Position numbers and translations under genes: made by a program | The notes under the pieces: generated by a model | Seen by the model: the letters and a program-made list of their open reading frames with translations, nothing else | Told to the model about the DNA's origin: nothing | Databases searched by the model: none | In this document: one piece after another, positions 18,909 to 37,224 of the stretch | Layout: every line of letters begins with the position of its first letter | How positions within the stretch are numbered: the first letter of the stretch is position 1 | Assembly (NCBI GenBank): GCA_027295775.1 | Contig: JAPUKG010000009.1 | Location: 1 to 37,315 of the forward strand | Direction of reading: 5' to 3' | DNA from: Pseudomonadota bacterium | Lineage (GTDB): Bacteria; Myxococcota_A; UBA9160; UBA4427 | DNA length: 37,315 bases

Positions 18909-19264
18909 GGCCGGGCTCCGGCCCCTGTGTCGTCGGCGAACGGGAGGCGGATCACGTGTTCCGGGCGCACGAACCCGCGTTCGCGGGCGTGCTCGGCCAG
19001 GAGCGACGGCTGGCGGAGCTGGCGCATCTCGACGGTCAGCTCGCGCTTCTCGGCCAGCAGCGACTGCTCGCGGGCGACGGCGTCGGCCAGCGCGTAGCGG
19101 ACGCGCAGCAGATCCACCCGGAGCACCGCCACGAGCAGGGCGGCCAGCAGCGCCGCCGCCAGGATCGGCGCGATCTCCCGGACGCGAGGCCGCCAGCGCA
19201 CCGCCCGCCCCGAGAAGTCGAGCCCGACGAGGTCGAGACCCCTGCGTGCGCTGCGCACGCTCAC
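18905..19264 (-). CDS. ftsL: Cell division protein FtsL
   Basis: TM segment plus coiled coil, located between rsmH and ftsI; GTGA/ATGA overlaps on both sides. Confidence 0.85.
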   Translation of the reverse strand: MSVRSARRGLDLVGLDFSGRAVRWRPRVREIAPILAAALLAALLVAVLRVDLLRVRYALADAVAREQSLLAEKRELTVEMRQLRQPSLLAEHARERGFVRPEHVIRLPFADDTGAGARP

Positions 19265-20238
19265 GCCGCCCGCTCCTCCAACGCCACCCGCTCGGCCGCG
19301 CGCAGCCGCGCGGAGCGGGCCCGGGGGTTCCGCCCCACCTCGTCCTGGCTGGGACGGATCGGCCGCCGGGTGATCACGCGCAGCGTCACCACCCCGCCGC
19401 AGATGCAGACCGGGGTGCGTGGCGGGCACGTGCAGGGGTTCTCGCCGGCCCGGAACGCCCGCTTGACGATCCGGTCCTCGAGCGAGTGGTAGGCGATGAC
19501 GACCAGGCGCCCGCCGGGACGCAACGCGGCGACGGCTGCATCGAGCCCCTCGCGGAGCGCCGAGAGCTCGTCATTGACCGCGATGCGCAGGGCCTGGAAG
19601 ACCAGCGTGGCCGGGTTGTGCTGGCGGCCGCGTCCCACCCGGGTCTCGCGGATCACGCGCAACAGGTCGGCGTTGGTCTCGAGGGGATGCTCGTCCCGCG
19701 AGTCGGCGATCGCGCGGGCCAGTCGTCGCGCGCCGGGAAGCTCGCCGTACTCGCGCAGCCAGCCCTCGATCTCCGCCTCGGAGGCGCGGTGCAGCAGCTC
19801 CGCCGCGCTCTGGCCCGAGCTCGGGTCCATGCGCATGTCGAGAGGGGCCGGGTGTGTCTCGGCCTCGGCGAAGCGGAAGCCGCGCTCGCGCGTGTCGAGC
19901 TGATGGGAGGAGACGCCCAGGTCCAGCAGCACCGCGTCGACCTTCTGGATGCCGAGGCTGGCGAGGGCGTCACCCACGCGGCGGAACGACGTGTGGACCA
20001 GATGCACGCGCCCGTCGAGCACCCCGGCGTCCTCGAGTCGGCGCTTGGTTGCGCGCAAGGCGTCGCCGTCCACGTCCATGCCGATCAGCGTCCCGTCAGA
20101 TCCGAGCTTGCCGAGGATGTGCCGAGCGTGACCGCCGCCACCGATGGTTCCGTCGATGACCACCGAACCGGGGTGCAGATGGAGGTGTCGGATGGTTTCG
20201 TCGAGAAGAACCGGCTCGTGCGCGAAGACGCTGGCCAA
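19261..20238 (-). CDS. rsmH: 16S rRNA m4C1402 methyltransferase RsmH (MraW)
   Basis: HEPVLL, DGTIGGGGH, DLGVSS.QLD, FQALRIAVNDEL, NPRARSA. Confidence 0.98.
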   Translation of the reverse strand: MASVFAHEPVLLDETIRHLHLHPGSVVIDGTIGGGGHARHILGKLGSDGTLIGMDVDGDALRATKRRLEDAGVLDGRVHLVHTSFRRVGDALASLGIQKVDAVLLDLGVSSHQLDTRERGFRFAEAETHPAPLDMRMDPSSGQSAAELLHRASEAEIEGWLREYGELPGARRLARAIADSRDEHPLETNADLLRVIRETRVGRGRQHNPATLVFQALRIAVNDELSALREGLDAAVAALRPGGRLVVIAYHSLEDRIVKRAFRAGENPCTCPPRTPVCICGGVVTLRVITRRPIRPSQDEVGRNPRARSARLRAAERVALEERAA

Positions 20239-24131: not shown

Positions 24132-24689
24132 CTAGTCTTCGTCGCTGGCGGCGGGAGCCCCGCTGGCGTAGGCCTTCTCGAGGGCTTCGACGGCTGCGGC
24201 CACGCGTTCGAGGTTCTCGTTCAGGGCCTCGACGTCCTTGCGGCGCGGCAGGTCGAGCAGCTTGAACACGCGCTCGACGGCGTTCTGCATATGGTGATCC
24301 AGGTCGGGGGCGGAGAAGGCCACCCAGTCGCCGAGCTTGCCGCCCTTTTGCTCCGACGCCTTCACGATCTTGCGCACGCGGCCCTGGATCTCCTCGATCC
24401 CCTCGCTGGCGTCGTCCATGCCGCGTCGGATCGCTCCGTACAAGACGTCGCCGCCGCGCTCGATGATCTGGGAGAGCAGGCTGCGCGGCACTTCGCGGTT
24501 GGCGCGTTCGCTGTCGACGAGGATCTGGGAGAGCGCGACGCTGGTGATGTCCTCGCCGGTCTCGTTGTCGACGACGCGGACCTCGTCGCCGGCATCGATC
24601 AGCTCGGAGATGCCCTTGAGCGTGATGTAGCGACTCGCCTCGGTGTTGTAGAGCTTGCGATTCGCATAGCGCTTGATGAGGATCGGCAT
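24132..24689 (-). CDS. PhaR-like DNA-binding domain protein with a phasin/granule-associated-like C-terminus
   Basis: IKRYANRKLYNTEASRYITL, DNETGEDIT..L.QII; C-terminal LDLPRRKDVEALN. Confidence 0.85.
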   Translation of the reverse strand: MPILIKRYANRKLYNTEASRYITLKGISELIDAGDEVRVVDNETGEDITSVALSQILVDSERANREVPRSLLSQIIERGGDVLYGAIRRGMDDASEGIEEIQGRVRKIVKASEQKGGKLGDWVAFSAPDLDHHMQNAVERVFKLLDLPRRKDVEALNENLERVAAAVEALEKAYASGAPAASDED

Positions 24690-24720: not shown

Positions 24721-25266
24721 TCAGCCCTGGACCCGGACCCGCTGCACGCGCCTCGCCGCCCGCCGTCGCCCGGCCTTCCGGCTCCGAACCGGGCGCGGAT
24801 CGCTCGCCGGAGAGGGCGGCTCGTCGCCGTCCCGGCGCAGGCCGAACTCCCATAGGATCTCGCGCAGTCCGAGGAAGGCGCGCAGCACGGCCCGGGCGTC
24901 AGTGTCGTCCCGCGACCGCTCCTCCCAGCGGGCGATCTCGGCGTCCAGGGCGTCGAGGATTGCGCCGAGGAGGCGCTCCGGTACGACCCGGCCGCCGCGG
25001 GAGGAGAGCCGGGCCGAGAGATCGTCGAGTCCATGGCCCAGAGCGGCCAGCCCGCGGTGGGCGTCAGCGGACTCGCCGCTCGCGGCCAGGCACGCCGCGT
25101 CCAGCAGGGCGCGTGCTGCCGCGAGCGCCTCTCCCAGCGCCGCCCGGGTGTGGGCCTGGGCGCGGGTGAGCGCCTCCTCGACCGAGCCGGGAGGATCGAG
25201 GCGCCCGGCGTCACTCGGGGACGGGGGCCGCCGAGCTCCCGTCCGCTGTTCGCCTTCGCTCGTCAT
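24721..25266 (-). CDS. Hypothetical helical protein with basic C-terminal tail (RVQRVRVQG)
   Basis: Coding-like composition from ATG 25266; co-oriented between the ArsA pair and the PhaR-like gene. Confidence 0.7.
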   Translation of the reverse strand: MTSEGEQRTGARRPPSPSDAGRLDPPGSVEEALTRAQAHTRAALGEALAAARALLDAACLAASGESADAHRGLAALGHGLDDLSARLSSRGGRVVPERLLGAILDALDAEIARWEERSRDDTDARAVLRAFLGLREILWEFGLRRDGDEPPSPASDPRPVRSRKAGRRRAARRVQRVRVQG

Positions 25267-26446
25267 CGACCAGGAACCCTCCGATGCGCATGAGCCCGTC
25301 GAGGTCGTGGACGTCGCGGGGAAACTCGGGGACCCGGCAGAAGAAGCGCCCATCCTGCAGCGCACGGAAGCGAAGCTCCGCGGTGCAGCGTGCGTCGAGG
25401 CGCACCAGCGAAGCGTACCCCTTCGCCACCTCCACCGCCGCACGCGCGGCCTCGTCGGCGCGCGCGGGTTCGAGGCCGTTCGCGACCAGTGCCTGCGCCA
25501 GCAGCGCGGTGTCCGCCGCGGCGTCGCCGTCCTCGGACAGGGCTTCGGGCAGGGCTCCCGCCTCGCCCGGGGGCCACAGGCGAATCCGGTTCACGACCAC
25601 GCCCACCAGGGGAACTCCCGACTCTTCCAGGTGATCCAGGAAGTCGACGGCGCCGCGCACTGCGCCGGCGGACGCCCCCGCCACCAGGACGAAGCCGGTC
25701 TCCGGCCCGGTCATCAGCTGGCGCACGCGCGTCGCCCGCGCGCGGAACCCCTCTGACATGCCCTCGAAGGCCAGCAGGAACTCCGACACATCCTCCAGGA
25801 AGGACACGCCGGACACCTTCTCGATCAGCTGGATCGCGCGCTGTGCGGTGCGGTGGAAGAGGCGGAACCCGAACCGCCCAGCGGCGAAGGCGGGGTGTAG
25901 CAGCACGTGCACGAGGCGGCTATCCAGGAATTCGAGCAGGCGCTGGGGTGCGTCCAGGAAGTCGAGGGCGTGCTGGGAGGGCGGGGTGTCCACCACCACC
26001 AGGTCGAAGTCGCCGCTCTCGCACAGCTCGTAGACCTTCTCCATGGCGGCGTACTCGGCGCTTCCCGCCAGGGCGTCCGAGACGTGCTGGTAGATGCGAT
26101 TGCCGAAAATCCGCTCGCGCGCGTCGGCGTTCTCGGCGAAGCGCTCCACCAGGTCGTCGAAGGTCCGCTTCATGTCGAGCATCAGCGCGAACAGCCGGCC
26201 CTCGCCGTGGATGCCGAGGGAGTCGCGTCGCTCGGCGGCGAGCTCCGACGGGCGATTGCCGAGCGCGTCGACGCCCAGGGCGTCCGCCAGCCGTCGTGCC
26301 GGGTCGATGGTCAGCACCAGGGCGCGCCGCCCGAGGCGGGCGCCCTCCAGGGCCAGGGATGCAGCGACCGTGGTCTTGCCGACCCCCCCGGTTCCGACGC
26401 ACACCACCACGCGCCGGCTGCAGATGAGCTCCGCCGGCGAGATCAA
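25211..26446 (-). CDS. ArsA/Get3-family ATPase, subunit B (Rv3680/BagB-like)
   Basis: GTGGVGKTT, TIDPARRLA, DTPP, LDFLDAP; TTG start overlapping the upstream stop (TTGA). Confidence 0.9.
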   Translation of the reverse strand: MISPAELICSRRVVVCVGTGGVGKTTVAASLALEGARLGRRALVLTIDPARRLADALGVDALGNRPSELAAERRDSLGIHGEGRLFALMLDMKRTFDDLVERFAENADARERIFGNRIYQHVSDALAGSAEYAAMEKVYELCESGDFDLVVVDTPPSQHALDFLDAPQRLLEFLDSRLVHVLLHPAFAAGRFGFRLFHRTAQRAIQLIEKVSGVSFLEDVSEFLLAFEGMSEGFRARATRVRQLMTGPETGFVLVAGASAGAVRGAVDFLDHLEESGVPLVGVVVNRIRLWPPGEAGALPEALSEDGDAAADTALLAQALVANGLEPARADEAARAAVEVAKGYASLVRLDARCTAELRFRALQDGRFFCRVPEFPRDVHDLDGLMRIGGFLVDDERRRTADGSSAAPVPE

Positions 26447-27432
26447 GGCGCCGCCTCCGCGGGCCGGGGCTCGCCCAGCAGGGCGTCGCCCAGGATCTGC
26501 AGCTCCGCCGCGCCGCCGATTCCGCCCGCCAGGTAGCGCAGCGGCACGACCGGGAGCCCCGTCGCGCGGGCGATCTCGCCGGTGTACTCCCGATTGAGCG
26601 CGTGGCGCGACGCGAGGTAGGCCGCGCACGCGGCCAGGGCGGAGGCGGGCGGGAGCGAGCCCAGGGCCGTCTCGGCCGGGAGCGCGGCCAGGTCCCGGTC
26701 GAGCTGCTCGAGGCCGGGCGGGAAGGGCGCCCCGATCACGGCATTGACCACGACCCGATCCACCGCGACACCCACGTCTTCGCGCAGTCGCGCGACCAGC
26801 GCGGCGGTCTCCCGGGCCGGCAGCTCCTCGGCCAGCGCCACCGGCAGCAGGAGGGTGCGCTTCCGGTCCTGGATCATCTCCGCCACCAGGCTGGCGTGGC
26901 GGCGCAGGGGCCCGGCGTGGACCGCCGAGACCACCACCCGCGGCACGTCCAGGAAGGTGACGCCATGCCCTGTGGCCGGCGCGTCCACGACGATCAGGTC
27001 GTAGAGCGGAGCCCCGTCCGCGTCGGTGAGCTGCTCCAGGTGCCAGACCTTGCCCAGGGTGATCAGCTCGCGCCATCCCGGCGAGGCCTCCATCAGCTGG
27101 CGGAAGCCCCGGCTGCGGAACACGAGATTCACCAGGCGCCGCGCCGGCACCTGGAGGGTCAGGTACTCGGCCAGCGCATCGAAGGGGTCGATGCGCATGG
27201 CCCGGAGCCCCGGGAGCAGCTCGCGTCCGGCGTAGCCGACGGGCTCGCCGTTCGGAACCAGCAGCCGCGGAAGCTGTTCGGCGCGCCCCACCTCGGCCAG
27301 CAGCACCCGCTTGCCGGCGCGGCTGGCCGCCAGGGCCAGAGCCGCTGCCACCGTGGTCTTGCCGGTGCCGCCCTTGCCCGTCACGATCACGAGCCGGCGC
27401 TCCAGGAGCGAGGGCTCCCGTTCCGCCACCAT
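26443..27432 (-). CDS. ArsA/Get3-family ATPase, subunit A (Rv3679/BagA-like)
   Basis: TGKGGTGKTT, PG..EL..LGK, DAPATGH, EELPARET. Confidence 0.9.
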   Translation of the reverse strand: MVAEREPSLLERRLVIVTGKGGTGKTTVAAALALAASRAGKRVLLAEVGRAEQLPRLLVPNGEPVGYAGRELLPGLRAMRIDPFDALAEYLTLQVPARRLVNLVFRSRGFRQLMEASPGWRELITLGKVWHLEQLTDADGAPLYDLIVVDAPATGHGVTFLDVPRVVVSAVHAGPLRRHASLVAEMIQDRKRTLLLPVALAEELPARETAALVARLREDVGVAVDRVVVNAVIGAPFPPGLEQLDRDLAALPAETALGSLPPASALAACAAYLASRHALNREYTGEIARATGLPVVPLRYLAGGIGGAAELQILGDALLGEPRPAEAAP

Positions 27433-27607: not shown

Positions 27608-28948
27608 TTGATCGTCGAATGCGAAAAGTGCTCGGTCCGTTTCCAGCTGGACGAGAGCCGCGTGCCCGCGGAGGGCATCCGGGTGCGCTGCTCCCGCTGC
27701 AAGCACTCCTTCTTCCTGCGCCGGCCCGGTGCCAGCCCCGCCGAAGAAGCGGATGCCCTGGCCCAGGAGGCGCTCGAGCCCGGGGCCGGTACGCCCGCGT
27801 CTACCGAGGACCTCGCAGCCGAGGAGAACGCCGATGACACCCGCGAGGAGAGCGCCAACGACGGCGAGGAGAGCGACTGGGAGTTCAACGACGCGGTCCC
27901 CGGATCGAACGAGCTCGACCCCGATGATGACGCGGACCCGGCGACCGACACCGTCGAGAACGACGCGGTCGCCCTCGCCTCCGAAGACGACGGCGCCGGC
28001 GACTCGAGCCTGGAGGTCACCAGCTTCGGCCGCGTCGACGACTTCTCCTCGCTGGCCGAGGCCGATGCCGAGACCGGACTCGGAGGCGCGGAGGCTTCGC
28101 CCTCCATCGGGGAGTCCGCGCAGACCGATGCGATCGACCCGCTCCTGGAGGGCGGCAGGGAAGAGCTGGGCGAGCCTGAGAACTGGGACTTCTTCGGCGA
28201 TGAGGATCCGCCCGCCCCCGAGGCGATGTCCATCGCCGCGCCCAGCGACCGACCCGCTGAGAGCGCGCTCCACTCGTCCGGTCCAGTCCTGCAGGCGGCC
28301 GCCTTGGACACCCGCGAGGAGGGCCCCGGCCTCCGGGCGCTGCGCAGCGCGGGTCGCGCCGCGGGCTGGTTCGTCGCTCTGTCGCTCCTGGCGCTGGGCC
28401 TGGTACGCGGCCTCGTTCCCGGCTTCCACCCCGTCACGCGCCCGGAGCCCGCGGTCGCATCCGCGGGCTGGGTCGCCCGCGGCGTCGAGAGTCACTGGGT
28501 CGAGACGGCGCGCTCGGGGACGCTCCTGTCGGTGACCGGAGAGCTTCGCAACCGCGACGGCGGTTCGCTGGACCGGGCGGGCCCCTGGCAGGCGGCGCTC
28601 CTGGGACCCGTGGGCCGGCCCCTCGAGCTGGATTCCGGGCGCGCCCGCCTGGGCGTTCCCCTGTCCGAGCCCGCGCTCCGCGAGCTGCCACCCGAGGCCC
28701 TGCGCGGATCCCTGGCCCGCGCCGCGGACAAGCTGGCTACCACCTCCGTGGAGCGCGGGGGCTCGCTGCGCTTCCAGGCGATCTTCGAGCGGGTGCCCGC
28801 CGAGGCCAAACGCCTGCGGGTGGAGCGGGCCGAGGCGCGGCCCTTCGAGTCCTTCGAGCCCAGCCTCGAGGCGCCCGAGCCGACAGCCGTGCCGGTCGGC
28901 GTGGTCGAGGCGATTCCGCTCCAGCCGTTTGCCGCGGAGACGCCCTAG
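27608..28948 (+). CDS. MJ0042-type zinc-ribbon protein with acidic linker, TM helix and DUF3426-like C-terminal domain
   Basis: CEKC...VRCSRC N-terminus; D/E-rich linker; TM AAGWFVALSLLALGLV; V.GEL.N. Confidence 0.8.
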   Translation: MIVECEKCSVRFQLDESRVPAEGIRVRCSRCKHSFFLRRPGASPAEEADALAQEALEPGAGTPASTEDLAAEENADDTREESANDGEESDWEFNDAVPGSNELDPDDDADPATDTVENDAVALASEDDGAGDSSLEVTSFGRVDDFSSLAEADAETGLGGAEASPSIGESAQTDAIDPLLEGGREELGEPENWDFFGDEDPPAPEAMSIAAPSDRPAESALHSSGPVLQAAALDTREEGPGLRALRSAGRAAGWFVALSLLALGLVRGLVPGFHPVTRPEPAVASAGWVARGVESHWVETARSGTLLSVTGELRNRDGGSLDRAGPWQAALLGPVGRPLELDSGRARLGVPLSEPALRELPPEALRGSLARAADKLATTSVERGGSLRFQAIFERVPAEAKRLRVERAEARPFESFEPSLEAPEPTAVPVGVVEAIPLQPFAAETP

Positions 28949-28958
28949 CCCGACTCTC

Positions 28959-29156
28959 CTAGCTCGGAGGCTTGCCGTCCGTGACCTCCTCCTTCTCGGG
29001 GGTCACGTCGATCTCGTCCTTGCCGCTGATGCCGGCCTTGAAGTTCTTGATCGCCTTGCCGATGCCCGAACCGATCTCGGGGAGTCGTCGCGCGCCGAAC
29101 AGCAGTACGACGATGGCCAGGATGATGATGAGCTCCCAGGCGCCCAGTCCGAACAT
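28959..29156 (-). CDS. tatA: Twin-arginine translocase TatA/TatE subunit (65 aa)
   Basis: MFGLGAWELIIILAIVVLLFGARRLPEIGSGIGKAIKNFK. Confidence 0.96.
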   Translation of the reverse strand: MFGLGAWELIIILAIVVLLFGARRLPEIGSGIGKAIKNFKAGISGKDEIDVTPEKEEVTDGKPPS

Positions 29157-29163
29157 ACCGAAG

Positions 29164-29192
29164 AGGGTGACGCCAACCGGGGTCGGGGTCAA
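29164..29192 (-). promoter_or_regulatory. Sigma70-like promoter TTGACC-17-CACCCT, 7 nt before the tatA ATG
   Basis: Exact 17-bp spacer; no SD. Confidence 0.5.
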
Positions 29193-29246
29193 CCACCCCT
29201 GAGACGACACTTTCCAGTCGGGGGCCGGCCTCGTAGAATGCGCGCC

Positions 29247-30593
29247 GTGCCGATCTTCAAGGCCTACGACATTCGCGGTCTGGTCCCCGAGGAGCTCGAC
29301 GCCGACACGGCCTACGGGATCGGTCGTGCCACCGCTCACTTCCTCGGTGCTCCGGAGATCGCCGTCGGACGGGACGCCCGCGAGAGCTCGCCGGAGCTCA
29401 GCGAGGCGGTGATACAGGGCATCATCGACGAGGGCGTCGACGTCGTTGATCTGGGGCTCGTGTCGACGCCCATGCTCTACTACGCCGTCGATCGCCTGGG
29501 CAGCGGGGGCGGGATCATGGTGACCGCCTCGCACAATCCCGCCGCCTACAACGGATTCAAGCTCTGTCGCCAGCACGCGATTCCGGTGGGGGAGGCCAGC
29601 GGGCTGCGCGAGATCGAGGCGCTCGTCGACCAGCGGCGGAGTGCGGCTCCCGCGGCCGCGCCGGGACGGCGCCGGAGCGAGGACGCGTCGGTCGGATACG
29701 CCGAGCACGTGCTCGGGGTCGGCAGCCAGCGGCCCGCGCTGCACGTCGCCATCGACTGCGGCAACGGCATGGCCTCGGTGGGACTCGAGCCGCTGCTCGA
29801 GATGCTGCCCCTGCGCGTGGAGCGCCTCTACTTCGAGCCCGACGGCCGCTTTCCCAACCACCAGGCTGACCCGCTCGAGCTCGAGAACCTGGTGGATCTG
29901 CAGGCGGCAGTGCGCAGCAGCGGCGCCGACTTCGGCGTGGCCTTCGACGGTGATGGGGATCGTGCCATCTTCGTGGACGAGTCCGGGGAGCCGATCTCGT
30001 CGGATCTCGTCACCGCGGTTCTCGCCCGCCGACAGCTCGCGAGCCGGCCCGGCTCCCTGGTGCTCTACGACCTTCGTTCGAGCCGAGCGGTGGCCGAGGA
30101 GATCGAATCGGCCGGTGGACGTGCGGTGATGTGCCGAGTGGGTCACTCCTTCGTGAAGGCGCAGATGCGCGAGTGCGGTGCGATCTTCGCGGGCGAGCTG
30201 TCCGGCCACTTCTACTTCCGCTTCTCGGATACGCTCGTGGCGGACGATGGCTGCGCTGCCCTGGTCGCCATGCTCGACGTGCTGGGCACCGAGCGCCGGC
30301 CTCTCTCGGAGATCATCGCACCGCTGCGGCGCTACGCGGCGAGCGGCGAGATCAACTCGCGAGTCGCCGATGTGGACCGGGTGCTGGAGCAGATCGAGGC
30401 CGAGCACGGTCGTGCCGGGGAGGTCTCGAAGCTGGACGGGCTGCTGGTCCGCTACGACGACTGGTGGTTCAACCTCCGGCCGTCCAACACGGAGCCCGTG
30501 CTGCGACTCAACCTGGAGGCGGAGAGCCTGGATCGCATGACCCGGGAGCGGGACCGGCTTCTGCTGCGCATCCAGGAGCTGGCGGGCTCCTAG
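29247..30593 (+). CDS. Phosphomannomutase/phosphoglucomutase
   Basis: IFKAYDIRG, TASHNP, FDGDGDR, GELSGH, RPSNTEP; GTG 29247 preceded by TAGAAT-N7. Confidence 0.96.
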   Translation: MPIFKAYDIRGLVPEELDADTAYGIGRATAHFLGAPEIAVGRDARESSPELSEAVIQGIIDEGVDVVDLGLVSTPMLYYAVDRLGSGGGIMVTASHNPAAYNGFKLCRQHAIPVGEASGLREIEALVDQRRSAAPAAAPGRRRSEDASVGYAEHVLGVGSQRPALHVAIDCGNGMASVGLEPLLEMLPLRVERLYFEPDGRFPNHQADPLELENLVDLQAAVRSSGADFGVAFDGDGDRAIFVDESGEPISSDLVTAVLARRQLASRPGSLVLYDLRSSRAVAEEIESAGGRAVMCRVGHSFVKAQMRECGAIFAGELSGHFYFRFSDTLVADDGCAALVAMLDVLGTERRPLSEIIAPLRRYAASGEINSRVADVDRVLEQIEAEHGRAGEVSKLDGLLVRYDDWWFNLRPSNTEPVLRLNLEAESLDRMTRERDRLLLRIQELAGS

Positions 30594-31744: not shown

Positions 31745-32590
31745 GTGTCCGCCGCTCCCGCCACGCCCGATGTTTCCGAGGCGGGGGGATCGTCCGTCGC
31801 CGCCGCCGTCTCGGGCTTTCGACTCCCGTTGGAGGGCTTCGGCGTGTTGCGGCGCAACCGAAGCTTGTGGGCGCTGGCCGCAGCGCCGGTGGGTCTATCG
31901 CTGGTGTCGGTCGCCGTGGCTCTCGGCCTGGTGATCGAGTACGCCACCCCGATCCACGGCTTCGTCTCGGGATGGATCCCCGTGCTCGAGGCCGGCTCGT
32001 GGTACGAGTGGCTGTGGGTGGGCCCGGCGCGGGTCGTGCTTGCGCTGCTCGGCACCCTGCTCTTTCTGGCGGCGGCCGGCCTGTCGCTCGTGCTTGGCTT
32101 CCTCGTGGCCAAGCTGCTGTCCTCGCCGATCCTGGACACCCTGTCCGAGCGCGTGGAGCGGATCGTGTCGGGGCAGCCCGTCGAAGCGGGAACCGGGTTG
32201 CGGGGCGTCCTTCGCGACGCCGGCGCGTCGATGTGGAACGAGCTGCGCCGCCTGCTCTTCTTCGTGGGCGTGTGGGCGGCGATCTTCGCGCTGGCTGCGG
32301 TGGTTCCCGGCGCGCAGCTCCTGGCCGCGCCGGCCATGATCGGGTTCACGATCCTCTTCCTGCCGCTGGACTACGCGGGCTACGCTCTCGACCGGCGCCG
32401 GGTCCCGTTTCGCAGCCGGCGCGTCTGGGTCGTCGGCAACCTTCCGCGCATGCTCGGGTTCGGCTCGTCGGCCTTCGTCACCGCGCTGGTGCCCGGCCTC
32501 AATTTTCTGCTGATCCCGATCCTCGTCGCCGCCGGCACACTGCTCGCCCTGCGCCACCCACCGGCTTCAGAGGCCGAGCGCGTCGCGTAG
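31745..32590 (+). CDS. EI24/CysZ-like membrane protein
   Basis: Multi-TM; SP.LD.LSERVE, LDY...L.RR, GFG, P.LN. Confidence 0.85.
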   Translation: MSAAPATPDVSEAGGSSVAAAVSGFRLPLEGFGVLRRNRSLWALAAAPVGLSLVSVAVALGLVIEYATPIHGFVSGWIPVLEAGSWYEWLWVGPARVVLALLGTLLFLAAAGLSLVLGFLVAKLLSSPILDTLSERVERIVSGQPVEAGTGLRGVLRDAGASMWNELRRLLFFVGVWAAIFALAAVVPGAQLLAAPAMIGFTILFLPLDYAGYALDRRRVPFRSRRVWVVGNLPRMLGFGSSAFVTALVPGLNFLLIPILVAAGTLLALRHPPASEAERVA

Positions 32591-33355
32591 GTGGATCCAC
32601 ATCGCCTTCAGCGCCACGCCCGGTAGCTGCTGGTGGCTGCCGTCGAACCACTCGATCTTCTTGGGCTCCTGCGCCGCCTGGTAGAGCGCCTCGGTCGCCG
32701 CCCGTGGCACCGTCTCGTCCCGGGTCGCGTTGACGAACAGGATCGGCCGCGGTGACACGGCGCCGACGAAGCGACACGGGTCGATCGCGTCCGGGCCGAA
32801 GCCCCCGCCCGCCAGGGCCAGGGCGGCGGCGCAAGGCCGCGGATCGACGGCGCAGAATACGGCGCCGAGCATGGCGCCGAGGCTGAAGCCGCCGTACGCG
32901 ATGCGCTCGCCGTCGATCTCGGGCAGGGCGGCGAGCGCGTCCACGGTGCGACGCAGGTCGATGATCGACTGTCGGGCGAACTCGATGCGCAGCGTTTCGC
33001 TGGACGCGTGGTTCGGGGCGGCCAGAACTGCGCTGAACTTCGCGTTGCTGCGCTCGCCGTGCAGGGGGAAGTCGATGGTGGCCACCGCCGCACCGCCGCG
33101 CACCCACGGCCCCCCCGCATCGAGGTACGGCGACTCCATGGAGCCGCCCGCGCCATGCTGGAGGAGCACCAGCGGGTGCGGCGCGCCGGTCTCGGAGGCG
33201 GGGAGAAGCAGTCGCCCAGGAACGCGGTCGCCGCGGGAGGTCAGCTCGAAGCGCACGCAGCGCGCACCGGCGAAGGCCTCTGGCGGCGCGGTCTCGCGCC
33301 GCTGGAATGCCAGCGGCTCGGCTGCGTCGTGATCGAAGAGAGCGTGCTCCGTCAC
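32567..33355 (-). CDS. Alpha/beta hydrolase
   Basis: HGAGG, GFSLG nucleophile elbow, RDETV, GSH triad residues. Confidence 0.88.
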   Translation of the reverse strand: MTEHALFDHDAAEPLAFQRRETAPPEAFAGARCVRFELTSRGDRVPGRLLLPASETGAPHPLVLLQHGAGGSMESPYLDAGGPWVRGGAAVATIDFPLHGERSNAKFSAVLAAPNHASSETLRIEFARQSIIDLRRTVDALAALPEIDGERIAYGGFSLGAMLGAVFCAVDPRPCAAALALAGGGFGPDAIDPCRFVGAVSPRPILFVNATRDETVPRAATEALYQAAQEPKKIEWFDGSHQQLPGVALKAMWIHLRDALGL

Positions 33356-33390: not shown

Positions 33391-33966
33391 CTAGTGAGCC
33401 AGGAGGATCCGCCGGGCGCGGTAGAGGTTCGACTTCACCGCGTCCTCGGACTTGGAGAGTGTCTTCGCGATCTCGCTGATCGGACGGTGCTCCAGGTGGT
33501 GCATGCGGAACAGGGTGCGTTGCTCTTGGGTGAGCTTGGTGCGCGCCGTCGTTTCCATCTGGGCCAGCCGTTCCTTGACCTCGTAGGCCTCGAGGGGAGT
33601 GGGATCCGGGGCCGCCGCAGTGGCTGCGGGGCCCCGGTCCGGATCGTCCTCCGTCAGCGGCACAGTGACGTGGCGCTTCTTCTTGAAGCGCGCCGCAATG
33701 GTCCGGCGCGTCAGGCCGAACACCCAGGCGGCGAAGGGCGCGTCTCCCCGAAACGACCCGATCGAGGAGAACACGTTGATGAAGGCCTCCTGAACCGTCT
33801 CTTCGGTGTCGGCGCGGTTGTTCAGGCGCTTCTCGACGAAGCGGTAGATACGGGGGAAGTAGCGCTCGTAGACGATCTCGAAGGCCGCCTCGTCGCCCTC
33901 ACACATCTGCTTGACGAGGACTTCGTCGGGCAGGCGGGCCACGCTATCGAGATCAGGTCGAGCCAA
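33391..33966 (-). CDS. ECF-type RNA polymerase sigma factor
   Basis: GDEAAF, TEETVQEAF, SFRGDAPFAAW, SEIA..L..SE.AVKSNLYRAR; start TTG 33966 or ATG 34029. Confidence 0.93.
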   Translation of the reverse strand: MARPDLDSVARLPDEVLVKQMCEGDEAAFEIVYERYFPRIYRFVEKRLNNRADTEETVQEAFINVFSSIGSFRGDAPFAAWVFGLTRRTIAARFKKKRHVTVPLTEDDPDRGPAATAAAPDPTPLEAYEVKERLAQMETTARTKLTQEQRTLFRMHHLEHRPISEIAKTLSKSEDAVKSNLYRARRILLAH

Positions 33967-34104
33967 GGAGAGGCACCCTTCTTCCCAGGTCCAATTCCAT
34001 CCTCGCCCGTGGCCTTTCGGCTCGGGCATTCCCCATAGGGAGATGTGGCCCGGGGAGGGTTGCGGGTGTCAAAATTTGTCAGGGGTGACGGAAACCGTCA
34101 GGGA

Positions 34105-34128: not shown

Positions 34129-34710
34129 CTAGGATTCGAAATCGCGGCGCTCCTCGGCGGTGAGGTGGAGATCCGCCTCGCTGAGGCCGCTCCGAAACAC
34201 CGCGGGCTCGGGGGTGTGCCGTCCCAAGCCCGTGGCCGCTCGAGCGGTTGCCCCGACCGACGGGGACGCCGCCTCGATCCAAAATCCGTCCTGGGCGCCA
34301 TTGTGGGCCTCGCGGTAGCACGCGAGCACCGGGGCCTGGGCGCCCAGGCTGGCCGCGGCGCTCCGGGTCTCCGGGTCGAAGTCGGGGCAGAGGAGCACGG
34401 CGCGGACCGGGGCGTCTGGATCCAGCCGTAGCTCGGGTCCGATCTGGGCCCAGTCGGCGAGCCGGGCCGACACCCAGCTGCACAGGGCCAAGGCCCGGGT
34501 CAGGAGTGTCGGGTCGTCACCGGCCTCGCCGATCAGGATCAGGGTCACCTGGCCGCGGTCATCCACCGCCACCAGATCCGCGGTGGAGCGCTCGCCCATC
34601 ACGTCTTCGGCAATCACCCGCAGCGAGGGGCCGAAGTCTCGAATTCGGTCGCGCACCGACCTGCGAAGCGCGTCGCGGGAATCTCGGGGCAGCGACCCTC
34701 GCTCAGACAA
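34129..34710 (-). CDS. Hypothetical protein with degenerate NucS/EndoMS-like PD-(D/E)XK fold
   Basis: LRVIAE..ADLVAVDDRGQVTLILI..WV..VRAVLLCPDF pattern; ExK absent; 8-bp overlap with the upstream gene. Confidence 0.65.
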   Translation of the reverse strand: MSERGSLPRDSRDALRRSVRDRIRDFGPSLRVIAEDVMGERSTADLVAVDDRGQVTLILIGEAGDDPTLLTRALALCSWVSARLADWAQIGPELRLDPDAPVRAVLLCPDFDPETRSAAASLGAQAPVLACYREAHNGAQDGFWIEAASPSVGATARAATGLGRHTPEPAVFRSGLSEADLHLTAEERRDFES

Positions 34711-35500
34711 CGGCCATCTCCCGGGCGTCGTCGAGCACCAGGCGCGCGACGTCGCGCAGGGCTCGGGCCGCGGGGGACTGGGGATGGGCGAGCCCGATGG
34801 GCCGGCGCGCCACGATCGCCCGGTACACGTCCAGATCGTCCACGAGCAGACCGTAGCTCGCCAGCTCGCGTCCGAGGTGGCGCTCTGTCGAGCGAGTCAA
34901 CCGGGCGAAGGCCTGCTCGGCGTCCGCCAGCCGCCGCGCGCCGTGAACCGTGATGCCGACCCGGGCACACTCGTTGGCGCCGAGGATGAGCTTGGCGATT
35001 CCGTAGGTCTCCAGCAGCTCCCGGGCGTCGCCCGACGTGAAGAGCAGGCACCAGCGCAGCAGGCTCGAGCTCTCGGCCAGGCCCGCCAACCAGGGCGGCG
35101 GGATGCGCACGAAGACCACGCCACCTTCCGGTGCTTCGGCGGCCCGATCGACCGCCACGTCGATGGCGTGGCGGTGAAGCTCCCCGAGTCCGCGGGCGTC
35201 CGAGTGCACGACCTCGACACCCACCGGACCGACCCCCGACACGGGGAGCAGTGCCTCGTCTCCACCGGATTTCGGGGCCAGGACCAAGGCGCGCGCGCCC
35301 AGCCGGGCGATCTCCACCGCCAGGTTCCAGGTCAGCGCCGAGCGGACGACGTCGCTCTCGCCGATCGGGACGCCGACCAGGGGAAGGGCGGCGGGCCGCC
35401 GAGCCGGCGTCGGGCCCGCGTGTACCGGTGGCGTCCGGGCAGCCTTGGGCTCAGCCTCCGGCAGGAGGTAGTGGAGGACGTCGGCCAGGTCGCGGGGCAA
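34703..35500 (-). CDS. FlhG/FleN/MinD-like protein lacking Walker A (pseudo-ATPase)
   Basis: NLAVEIARLG; LLETYGIAK; AEQAFARL...ERHLG; V.RAI..RRPI..AHPQSPAARAL. Confidence 0.75.
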   Translation of the reverse strand: MPRDLADVLHYLLPEAEPKAARTPPVHAGPTPARRPAALPLVGVPIGESDVVRSALTWNLAVEIARLGARALVLAPKSGGDEALLPVSGVGPVGVEVVHSDARGLGELHRHAIDVAVDRAAEAPEGGVVFVRIPPPWLAGLAESSSLLRWCLLFTSGDARELLETYGIAKLILGANECARVGITVHGARRLADAEQAFARLTRSTERHLGRELASYGLLVDDLDVYRAIVARRPIGLAHPQSPAARALRDVARLVLDDAREMAVV

Positions 35501-35521
35501 TTCGCTAGCGGGCCTCCAGTG

Positions 35522-36604
35522 CTAGCGCACCACGAGGATCGAGTTGCGCCCACCGCCGGAGACGGGCAGCGACTGGGCGTTGTCCGGATCCTCCCGCCAT
35601 TCCCCGTCGACGATGTAGCGGTACTGGTAGGTCCCGGGCGGCAGGTGGAGGATCTTCGTCCACACCCGCGTCTCTCCCTCCCGGTCGACGCGTGAGCGCA
35701 CCCCCTTGTCGGGCACCCAGCCGTTGAAGTCGCCCGCGATTCGGACGTCGCCGGCCCGGGCGTCTCGGAAGCGGACGACGACCTCACGCGCGGTGTCGAC
35801 CTCGGCCTGGCGATCCTCCAGTGCGATCGTCTGATCCGGCGGCGACGCCTCCACCTCGATGGCCACGGCGGCGTAGTCGAGAGCGCCGTTCGCCGACGGC
35901 GCGTAGAGGTTGATGGGCACGCCCCGCTTCGCGCACTCGCGGAGCTTCACGTTCTGGCGAATCACCGCGTCGAAGCAGAGGTCCTTGAAGAGCTCGCGCA
36001 TCTCGGCCAGCGTCTGGCGCGCGAAGCGGGTTCGCCCGTCGTAGAGCGTGGGCAGGATGCGCACCGACAGGTCGATTCCGATCCGGTCAGCGAGCAGGCC
36101 GATGGTCTCGAGGAGCTTCTGCACGCCGTCGATGGCGAAGTAGCTCGTCTCGAGGGGGATGATCACCTCGCGCACGGCGCGAAGGGCGTTGAACGTCAGC
36201 AGCCCTACGTTCGGCGGGCAGTCGACCAGCACGTAGTCGTAGCGGGGCGGGAGCTTCGCCAGGGCCGCCGCCAGGCGCTCGGTGCGCGAGTCTTGGCGCT
36301 CGCTGGCGAGCTTCTGCTCCAGGGCCGAGAGCACGATGCTGGACGGCGCCAGGTCGAGGTTGTCCCCCGCGTTCACGATCACCTCTTCCAGGTGGTTGGC
36401 GCCTCCCGGCTCGGCGAGCACTTCGTAGAGGTTCTCGTCGAGCTCGTCCGGGTCGATGCCCAGCGCCAGGCTCGCGTGGGCCTGCGGGTCGAGGTCGACG
36501 ATCAGCACCCGAAAACCGTCGGCGGCGAGCGCTCCGCCCAGGTTGACGGTGGTGGTCGTCTTCCCGCAGCCCCCCTTCTGGTTCACGATGGCGATGGTGC
36601 GCAT
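35522..36604 (-). CDS. ParA/Soj-family ATPase fused to a C-terminal AMPK-beta-type glycogen-binding domain (CBM48)
   Basis: NQKGGCGKTTT, DLDPQ, DCPP; C-terminal IAGDFNGW...LPPGTYQYRYIVDGEW..DPDN. Confidence 0.93.
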   Translation of the reverse strand: MRTIAIVNQKGGCGKTTTTVNLGGALAADGFRVLIVDLDPQAHASLALGIDPDELDENLYEVLAEPGGANHLEEVIVNAGDNLDLAPSSIVLSALEQKLASERQDSRTERLAAALAKLPPRYDYVLVDCPPNVGLLTFNALRAVREVIIPLETSYFAIDGVQKLLETIGLLADRIGIDLSVRILPTLYDGRTRFARQTLAEMRELFKDLCFDAVIRQNVKLRECAKRGVPINLYAPSANGALDYAAVAIEVEASPPDQTIALEDRQAEVDTAREVVVRFRDARAGDVRIAGDFNGWVPDKGVRSRVDREGETRVWTKILHLPPGTYQYRYIVDGEWREDPDNAQSLPVSGGGRNSILVVR

Positions 36605-36750
36605 AGCCCTGTCCCCCCCCAACGATCGACGCCTGATCCAGCGTCGATCGCTTGGTCCCTCGCGGGGTGCGCAGGCTGCGCCTCCATCTCAAACTACACC
36701 AGCCGACTCGAGTTCCGGAGCATGGCCGTCTCCGGACACCACTCCCTACC

Positions 36751-37224
36751 TCAGGCCGTGCGAATCCACTCCCGCTGTCGGCGAACCGGTCGTACCCCCC
36801 GAACAAACCGTTTCTCGGCCTCGCGCCTCCAGGCTTCGACTTCGCTCTGGAACTGCGCGACTTCGAAGACCCACTCCTGGCCCGAGACCGCTTCGAAAAC
36901 CGTACCCTCCCAGAATGCCAGGACCACGTCCCCCGTCGCCACGAGCACCAGCTCGGAGAGGGGGCGGTCCACGCCCGGGAGGAGCTTGCGCAGCGCCTGG
37001 ATGCTGCGGCGAATGCGCTGCACCGAGACGCCGGCGTCGATCAGGCGCTTGGCCGCCTTGAGCGCCACGAGATCGTCGAAGGTGAAGCGGTGATGACCGC
37101 CCGGGGTCTTCACCGTGGGCGCAATCAGGTCCGTCTGCGCCCAGTACTGGAGCTGGCGGCGGGAGATGCCCAGGATCTCGACCACATCCCGGGTTCGATA
37201 GAGCTCGTTCGCATCTGCGGGCAT
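36751..37224 (-). CDS. MerR-family HTH regulator (Rv1830-like architecture)
   Basis: GISRRQLQYWAQTDLI.P, RFTFDDLVALK..KRLIDAGVSVQRIR. Confidence 0.88.
   Translation of the reverse strand: MPADANELYRTRDVVEILGISRRQLQYWAQTDLIAPTVKTPGGHHRFTFDDLVALKAAKRLIDAGVSVQRIRRSIQALRKLLPGVDRPLSELVLVATGDVVLAFWEGTVFEAVSGQEWVFEVAQFQSEVEAWRREAEKRFVRGVRPVRRQREWIRTA

Follow-up and report, generated by a model that had tools for sequence, protein, structure and literature searches.

A ParA-type ATPase fused to an AMPK-beta-like carbohydrate-binding module in a single-copy chromosomal operon of an uncultured Myxococcota class

The window analysed here is a stretch of 37,315 nucleotides (contig JAPUKG010000009.1 of assembly GCA_027295775.1, GTDB lineage Myxococcota_A), and towards its end lies an operon of three genes, all on the minus strand. 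The first gene (35522..36604) encodes a ParA-type ATPase of 360 amino acids (aa) plus stop that is fused to a C-terminal carbohydrate-binding module (CBM), as identified from the open reading frame (ORF) and its Pfam AAA_31 and AMPK1_CBM domains; it is called ParA-CBM below. The ORF as listed spans 35522-36622 (366 aa), and the start codon of the orthologues falls at 36604, giving the 360 aa. Gene 2 (34703..35500, 265 aa) encodes a pseudo-ATPase of the ParA/MinD fold, and gene 3 (34129..34710, 193 aa) a protein with a NucS_C-like PD-(D/E)xK fold. The spacing of the three genes, a 21-bp gap (35501-35521) followed by an 8-bp overlap (34703-34710), is as given in the original prediction, which was made from the sequence alone and took the operon for a glycogen-granule positioning or sensing system. 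The operon is a single-copy chromosomal system of one uncultured class of Myxococcota, and it is neither the ParABS system of the chromosome nor tied to glycogen.

The ATPase domain (residues 1-255, 35840..36604) is of the ParA/Soj type and matches Pfam AAA_31 at 1.2e-50 (172 bits, cut-off 27). Its deviant Walker A motif, NQKGGCGKTT with the signature lysine (K10...K15 T16), is invariant in 29 orthologues from across the class, as are D39, which aligns with HpSoj D41, and the Walker B residue D128 (DCPP). The closest solved structures, with E values between 1e-37 and 1e-49, are 8ray (2.9e-49), HpSoj 6iub (1.5e-41) and TtSoj 1wcv. The short motifs picked out earlier in the translation, namely KGGCGKT, DCPP, DGRT, NVKL, GDFNGW and VDGEW, are all present. 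In HpSoj, DNA binding was traced by mutagenesis to K199, K227, K230 and K247 (PMC6393308). By alignment these residues correspond to R196, Q217, K220 and S237, two of the four being basic, and the invariant residues R191, R193, R216 and R222 lie near the mapped positions. The earlier statement that basic residues occupy the Soj DNA-contact positions is correct for K220 of NVKL, the equivalent of K230, but the equivalent of K199 is R196 and not the arginine of DGRT. With two of four contact positions basic, DNA binding by ParA-CBM is plausible, not assured. The protein therefore shares its fold and catalytic motifs with chromosomal ParA/Soj, including R196 and K220 as counterparts of HpSoj K199 and K230, but differs in having no adjacent ParB, no parS, non-basic residues at 217 and 237, and an extra C-terminal CBM.

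The genome carries a separate parA-parB pair on contig C311, away from the operon, and its single ParB_N match lies there, next to a different ParA. The operon ParA is thus an extra one, in agreement with its earlier description as an orphan, and its ATPase is 40% identical to the genome's own ParA. A scan of the window with the parS consensus gave 0 matches at up to 3 mismatches, which accords with the earlier remark that no such site was noticed, and no MinD over the cut-off was found in the genome, which is 91% complete. A third ParA-like gene (contig C20 of genome G000, L073 6692-7603, minus strand) shows 36% identity, has no ParB-like neighbour and is unrelated to the operon. The two genes beside it are presumably etfB and etfA, judging from their N-terminal sequences.

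The CBM (residues 273-360, 35525..35788) is of the CBM48, AMPK-beta-like type and is joined to the ATPase domain by a variable linker (residues 256-272, 35789..35839). It matches Pfam AMPK1_CBM at 1e-11 (45.3 bits, cut-off 26.8) over residues 289-360 of the 366-aa ORF, and in the genome-wide profile search (48.9 bits) it is the sole AMPK1_CBM of the window's genome. The module aligns with the AMPK beta structures 2f15 and 1z0n at about 1e-6. Counting along the alignment, W296, R329 and W336 stand at the positions of W100, K126 and W133 of AMPK beta-1, where mutations weaken or abolish glycogen binding (PMC6274970), and all three are invariant in the orthologue alignment. Both Pfam and the alignment to W100 and W133 support the proposed fusion, at about 35525-35790, of a CBM48 that keeps its two stacking tryptophans. 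Mean pairwise identity is 0.64 for the CBM, 0.71 for the ATPase domain and 0.18 for the linker. The likeness to the AMPK beta-subunit module consists of the Pfam match above its cut-off and the equivalents of W100, K126 (as Arg) and W133. However, the module described here is bacterial, is fused to an ATPase and occurs mostly in genomes without GlgA or GlgB.

The combination of AAA_31 and AMPK1_CBM is carried by more than 120 clusters at 72-81% identity, and an Atlas search with the CBM returned stand-alone AMPK1_CBM clusters only. A search of protein representatives at 50% identity with the CBM gave 6399 matches at E <= 0.001. The best 150 of these 6399 are mostly proteins with 2-18 tandem CBM repeats, along with a small number of fragments or orthologues whose identity is 63-75%. 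Many of the tandem-CBM proteins among those 150 are about 480 aa long and hold four copies. The CBM has been lost from the ParA orthologues of three genomes (G248, G073 and G444), none of which holds an AMPK1_CBM anywhere.

Gene 2 begins with a conserved peptide, MPRDLxDVLHYFLPE in the alignment (residues 1-15, 35456-35500), followed by a disordered and variable linker. Neither gene 2 nor gene 3 matches any Pfam or NCBIfam family. The AlphaFold2 (AF2) model of gene 2, built from a 31-sequence alignment (predicted local distance difference test score, pLDDT, 83.8), was compared with solved structures by Foldseek. FlhG (4rz3) came out first at E 6.4e-14 with template modelling (TM) scores of 0.64/0.69, followed by FleN, MinD, NifH and Soj, and the matches to FlhG, FleN and MinD as a group span E 6e-14 to 1e-11 and TM 0.61-0.69. 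The fold is that of FlhG/FleN/MinD, but gene 2 has neither their Walker A nor their Walker B motif, nor a Pfam match: a GDRDVVR loop takes the place of Walker A, and VRVPP stands at Walker B with the aspartate gone. A profile comparison with the neighbouring ParA (hhalign) gave a probability of 0.25%, so the homology of gene 2 to ParA is read from its fold. FlhG also has a conserved N-terminal peptide on a flexible linker, a feature that gene 2 shares.

Gene 3 was modelled in the same way (AF2, pLDDT 84) from an alignment of 16 sequences. Foldseek gave matches with moderate scores to NucS 2vld and EndoMS 5gke (E 4.6e-4, TM 0.34-0.40), and the Atlas structure search returned NucS_C-bearing clusters at TM 0.64-0.69. 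Across the 16 sequences D45 is invariant, the acidic position of (D/E)xK is variable, and no conserved lysine was found on the third strand at the catalytic (D/E)xK position. Gene 3 has the PD-(D/E)xK fold and invariant acidic residue (D45) of the C-terminal nuclease domain of NucS/EndoMS, but it is without the conserved lysine and the NucS N-terminal domain and has gained a conserved C-terminal peptide. This peptide, FRSGLSExDLGLxxEExxEF in the alignment (residues 172-193, 34132-34197), comes after a disordered linker. The proposal that both partners are pseudoenzymes therefore agrees with the alignments, gene 2 being without nucleotide-binding motifs and gene 3 without the catalytic lysine. 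An N-terminal peptide of HpParB, with conserved Leu7 and Arg9 in an LGRG stretch, docks on HpParA (PMC11229316), and in our own reading the 'FRSGL' of gene 3 may resemble that Leu7/Arg9 peptide. A three-chain complex prediction, with ParA-CBM, gene 3 and gene 2 as partner, scored 0.53, 0.52 and 0.60, and 0.50 with an unrelated chain 1; it is not taken as evidence.

Linkage of the three genes was followed in 30 short loci with 1.5-kb flanks (tblastn) and twenty long loci of 13 kb (profile hidden Markov models, HMMs). Gene 2 lies directly 3' of ParA-CBM in 29 of the 30 short loci, the thirtieth being cut, and was found in 18 of the 20 long loci, of which L044 is cut. All six loci from family f11 have it as well, with weak matches (E 1.5e-12 to 7.5e-4) that begin at position 3 of the HMM profile, so the N-terminal motif is kept. 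Gene 3 occurs in 27 of the short loci; L002 and L004 gave no match to it, and in both a gene for an extracytoplasmic function (ECF) sigma factor follows gene 2. Among the long loci it occurs in 11, with no match in L036 or in any of the six from f11. The suspected conserved linkage of the downstream genes is thus present. Throughout the class the core consists of ParA-CBM and gene 2, whereas gene 3 and the flanking MerR and ECF sigma genes are features of the window's order. At one long locus, L043 (G373:C303), about 1.07 kb without a match to gene 2 or gene 3 separates a ParA orthologue without the CBM from the ECF gene, and the original partner may there have given way to another.

The distribution of ParA-CBM was determined in a phylum-wide search of 401 genomes and in a class sample of 151 genomes, the latter with an orthologue cut-off of E <= 1e-70. 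Across the 401 genomes, full-length matches are confined to the window's class. They occur in 26 of 26 genomes of the window's family (its own genome counted), in 31 of 38 from the rest of the order (3 have the ATPase only and 4 have none), and in 13 of 14 from family f11, where a contig end truncates the remaining one. The fusion was not seen in the other 323 genomes of the phylum, where the best match has E 1.3e-57 or worse and the listed matches cover the ATPase part only. In the class sample an orthologue is present in 139 of 151 genomes, and in 99 of the 104 high-quality ones; the 12 genomes that lack a match are mostly either small (5 at 2.0-2.8 Mb) or less than 80% complete. The orthologue is single-copy throughout the class except in G273. 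This genome, the only such case of the 151, has two full-length ParA-CBM copies (C39 and C75) that are 77% and 73% identical to the protein of the window. Sequencing runs that contain the DNA come from 8 studies and are marine or sediment metagenomes where labelled; no RNA run is listed.

Inheritance appears to be vertical. A quick tree (LG+G4) was made from 46 orthologues, with four loci that duplicate included genomes left out, and its tips include kin that are not independent. On this tree the nine family labels need 8 changes, which is the minimum, against a mean of 23.3 for shuffled labels, and 0 of 200 shuffles are as low. Family f1 forms a clade with support 97 and f11 a clade with support 100. 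The rate of change is close to that of the chromosomal ParA: between G000 and G308, G228, G128, G363 and G198, identity is 74, 70, 70, 61 and 60% for ParA-CBM, and 74, 70, 65, 56 and 57% for the chromosomal ParA.

Three of the genes flanking the operon are also on the minus strand. A MerR-family helix-turn-helix (HTH) protein of 157 aa (36751..37224; Pfam MerR_1 4.2e-15) is encoded 146 bp 5' of the ParA start. It has a match just 5' of ParA in 29 of the 30 short loci at 55-76% identity (tblastn), with residues 9-128 conserved across 36 sequences, and was not detected by tblastn in the six f11 loci. An ECF-type sigma-70 factor of 212 aa (33391..34029; Pfam Sigma70_r2 and r4_2; TIGR02937 at 95.8 bits, cut-off 42.9) follows 99 bp 3' of gene 3. 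The ECF gene lies 3' of the operon in 13 of the 20 long loci and in 0 of the 6 from f11, and in the window's order it has no recognisable anti-sigma gene beside it. Next comes an alpha/beta-hydrolase of 262 aa with a GFSLG serine motif (32567..33355; Pfam Abhydrolase_1, with weak AXE1 and DLH matches). By tblastn the hydrolase is found 3' of the operon in 16 of the 20 long loci, including L031-L033 and L050 and three of the six from f11. It may belong to the system, being co-directional and kept in some f11 loci without gene 3, MerR or ECF. The genes from MerR through the hydrolase show the bias in G+C at third codon positions (GC3) typical of real genes, in DNA of 71% G+C.

The space 5' of ParA holds an inverted repeat (36618..36655) with 15-nt arms, 87% complementary, and an 8-nt spacer, located 14 nt from the ATG, and may form an RNA hairpin or an operator. 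Relatives often have a hairpin 18-45 nt 5' of ParA, counted with no chance control, and its sequence is not conserved. A scan for promoters and terminators found no promoter-like site, and the one terminator-like site is on the opposite strand, which is below the shuffle mean. Synteny extends across families, with a divergent ATP-cone kinase-like gene on the 5' side and the hydrolase, EI24/CysZ and phosphoglucomutase genes on the 3' side. The genes for a phosphoglucomutase/phosphomannomutase and an EI24/CysZ membrane protein are conserved near neighbours (window 28929-30593, plus strand; L031 9245-10606; L038 11046-12386), and the pair is the only link to sugar metabolism in the operon neighbourhood. 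About 14 kb from the operon is an rsmH/mraW methylase gene (19261-20238, minus strand), which we take to be the head of a division and cell-wall gene cluster and which places the locus in a housekeeping part of the chromosome.

Genes of glycogen synthesis were tallied in the same 151 genomes, counting GlgA-like and GlgB proteins at E <= 1e-30. Of the 139 genomes with an orthologue, 30 have a GlgA-like protein, 52 have GlgB, 53 have either and 86 have neither; among the 12 without an orthologue, 2 have a GlgA-like protein and 5 have GlgB. For the class sample as a whole, 28 genomes have GlgA over its cut-off and 32 have it at E <= 1e-30; the corresponding counts for GlgB are 52 and 57. In the window's family of 48 genomes the orthologue is present in 46, GlgA in 1 and GlgB in 7. 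The window's genome, at its 91% completeness, lacks GlgB and glycogen phosphorylase, its best GlgA match (43 bits) stays below the cut-off, and its single GH13 protein is alpha-glucosidase-like. Incompleteness of metagenome-assembled genomes (MAGs) cannot explain a gap of such size. The GlgE route also requires GlgB to make glycogen; GlgE was not searched on its own. Glycogen as the cargo was thus not upheld: the original prediction held that occurrence of the fusion mostly in genomes without glycogen synthesis would speak against it, and 86 of the 139 have neither a GlgA-like protein nor GlgB. The idea that the CBM is lost where glycogen is absent was likewise ruled out, since the three true losses (G248, G073 and G444) are all in GlgB-positive genomes.

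The architecture itself is already in print. Li, Burroughs and Aravind (bioRxiv, 22 Oct 2026, 10.64898/2026.10.19.760177) describe computationally a 'CBM-containing system' in which ParA is fused to a C-terminal AMPK1_CBM, and a second variant that adds a second ParA and a restriction endonuclease (REase), both predicted to be inactive. The passages of that preprint on the system call its distribution sporadic and its CBM rapidly diverging, and propose an immune role in which carbohydrate sensing leads to ParA multimerisation and infection is limited. The earlier remark that no characterised system has this architecture therefore holds for experiments but not for the architecture, which the preprint (10.64898/2026.10.19.760177) already contains. 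No other ParA-CBM paper was evident in a full-text literature search covering few subscription journals. The gene set of the preprint's system, ParA-CBM with an inactive ParA and an inactive REase, is the same as that of the window; its passages on the system are silent on nearby MerR, ECF sigma and hydrolase genes such as those present here. In contrast to the sporadic occurrence and diverging CBM described by Li et al., the system in this class, as tested within this phylum, is near-universal, single-copy, syntenic and congruent with taxonomy, and its CBM is conserved. This class-wide core-gene behaviour points to a cellular function for an architecture so far in print as a prediction.

Orphan ParA systems are known from McdAB, which positions carboxysomes, and PomXYZ, which positions the division site. 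In these an orphan ParA-type ATPase works with a dedicated non-ParB partner and the genome's own ParABS is separate, as is the case here. Their cargo adaptor, however, is a protein of its own; in ParA-CBM a lectin domain forms part of the ATPase polypeptide, and the partner protein itself has a dead ParA fold. The explanation that we favour, with a confidence falling a little short of even, is an orphan ParA system, vertically inherited, that would serve for positioning or as a switch; its lectin would have a ligand other than classical glycogen, and the ATPase cycle would be set by the dead ParA-fold partner. ParA-CBM, with its intact motifs, would bind ATP and form the usual sandwich dimer. 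The dimer would probably sit on the nucleoid, given two basic residues at the four HpSoj DNA-contact positions and invariant arginine beside them. The flexible linker would hold out the CBM48, which would tether the ligand. This is predicted to be a glycan, because the stacking tryptophan pair and the basic residue are invariant, and gene content indicates that in most hosts it would not be classical glycogen. Gene 2, the universal partner that does not bind nucleotide, may set the ATPase cycle or link the cargo through its MPRDL... peptide. Peptides of ParB, McdB, PomX and MinE act on their ATPases, and action through a short terminal peptide, as by the McdAB and PomXYZ partners, is proposed here for gene 2 by analogy. 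The window's order would then have gained gene 3, possibly a DNA-binding adaptor with a ParB-like 'FRSGL' C-terminal peptide, and also the MerR-type regulator and the ECF sigma factor, which perhaps couples the switch to transcription.

Several other explanations bear on the same evidence. That the CBM48 binds glycogen and a ParA gradient spreads the granules over the nucleoid, or senses them, appears highly improbable. The AMPK1_CBM is genuine and keeps the equivalents of W100, K126 and W133, about a third of the hosts (52 of 139) have GlgB, and a phosphoglucomutase gene is a conserved near neighbour. However, 86 of the 139 have neither a GlgA-like protein nor GlgB at E <= 1e-30, the window's own family couples 46 of 48 orthologues with 1 GlgA and 7 GlgB, its own genome lacks GlgA and phosphorylase and has an alpha-glucosidase-like protein as sole GH13 member, and GlgB is present in 5 of the 12 genomes without an orthologue as well as in all three that lost the CBM. 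A second DNA-partition-like system acting at a chromosomal site, with MerR or gene 3 as a centromere-binding adaptor in place of ParB, is very unlikely: it would fit a Soj-like ATPase with 40% identity to the genome's own ParA, a DNA-binding MerR, the palindrome at 36618-36655, and a gene 3 that has a DNA-enzyme fold and an 'FRSGL' peptide that we liken to Leu7/Arg9 of HpParB (PMC11229316), but relatives do not share the sequence of the palindrome, f11 has neither MerR nor gene 3, and the invariant lectin domain is left unexplained. A transcription switch, in which ParA-CBM and the dead ParA would control the ECF sigma factor or MerR upon a sugar signal as FleN does on FleQ, also seems unlikely. 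Structurally, gene 2 comes closest to FlhG and the anti-activator FleN, and within the order an ECF sigma without recognisable anti-sigma follows gene 3 while MerR precedes ParA; in f11, however, the pair of ParA-CBM and gene 2 stands without ECF, MerR and gene 3, which indicates that the core pair works without them.

An inactivated restriction-endonuclease fold is common in defence systems, genes 2 and 3 diverge fast, and the presence of gene 3 is variable, all of which would suit the proposal of Li et al. that this is a conflict system directed against phages or plasmids; their preprint describes exactly the gene set of the operon. There the CBM would sense an infection-linked carbohydrate, ParA would multimerise, and the inactive ParA and REase would serve as extra sensors. 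We regard this as rather unlikely. The system is present in 139 of 151 class genomes in single copy and so is not sporadic, it is syntenic among housekeeping genes, its tree follows taxonomy, its rate of evolution is as low as that of the chromosomal ParA, the mean CBM identity is 0.64, and PADLOC models gave no meaningful match, with only P-loop and HTH fragments hit. Together, these features argue for a cellular role over a typical defence system. Several points nevertheless weigh against the orphan positioning or switch system favoured here. The immune role, although computational, is the sole published opinion on the architecture, and a defence gene fixed across a clade would be unusual but not impossible. 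Identity is 28-58% for gene 2 and 30-49% for gene 3, compared with 56-77% for ParA-CBM, so the partners evolve much faster, and gene 3 is dispensable in several lineages; fast divergence with dispensability is the pattern that Li et al. (10.64898/2026.10.19.760177) read as conflict-driven. G248 and G073 (loci L041 and L042) keep genes 2 and 3 despite having lost the CBM, which implies that the core machine can do without the lectin. Positions Q217 and S237 of the putative DNA-contact surface are not basic. The genomes are MAGs or species representatives in which kin are not independent, and everything past the domain assignments, including every functional step, is inferred.

ParA/MinD ATPases are general positioning engines of bacteria, and every new cargo has taught something about cell organisation. 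What is unusual here is that the adaptor is built into the ATPase, that this adaptor is a sugar-binding module, and that the partner is a degenerate ParA fold. It is possible, if doubtful, that the operon represents a new housekeeping kind of ParA, with a lectin adaptor fused to the ATPase and a dead-ParA regulator, that positions or reports a cytoplasmic glycan other than classical glycogen, is fixed in a marine-sediment class of Myxococcota and has an ECF output in one order. Candidates would be a storage or precursor polysaccharide that has so far escaped recognition, or else an assembly of glycosylated protein. The glycogen story is removed as unsupported, most hosts being without GlgA and GlgB. 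The published immunity view and that of a slowly evolving, syntenic, taxonomy-congruent core gene are directly testable against each other.

Elsewhere in the window, a gene for a PhaR-like protein (24132-24689, minus strand), with PHB_acc_N plus phasin domains, adjoins two genes for ArsA/Get3-like P-loop ATPases (25211-27432, minus strand). These organisms may store polyhydroxyalkanoate (PHA) instead of glycogen. An ArsA-like pair next to a PHA regulator is unusual.

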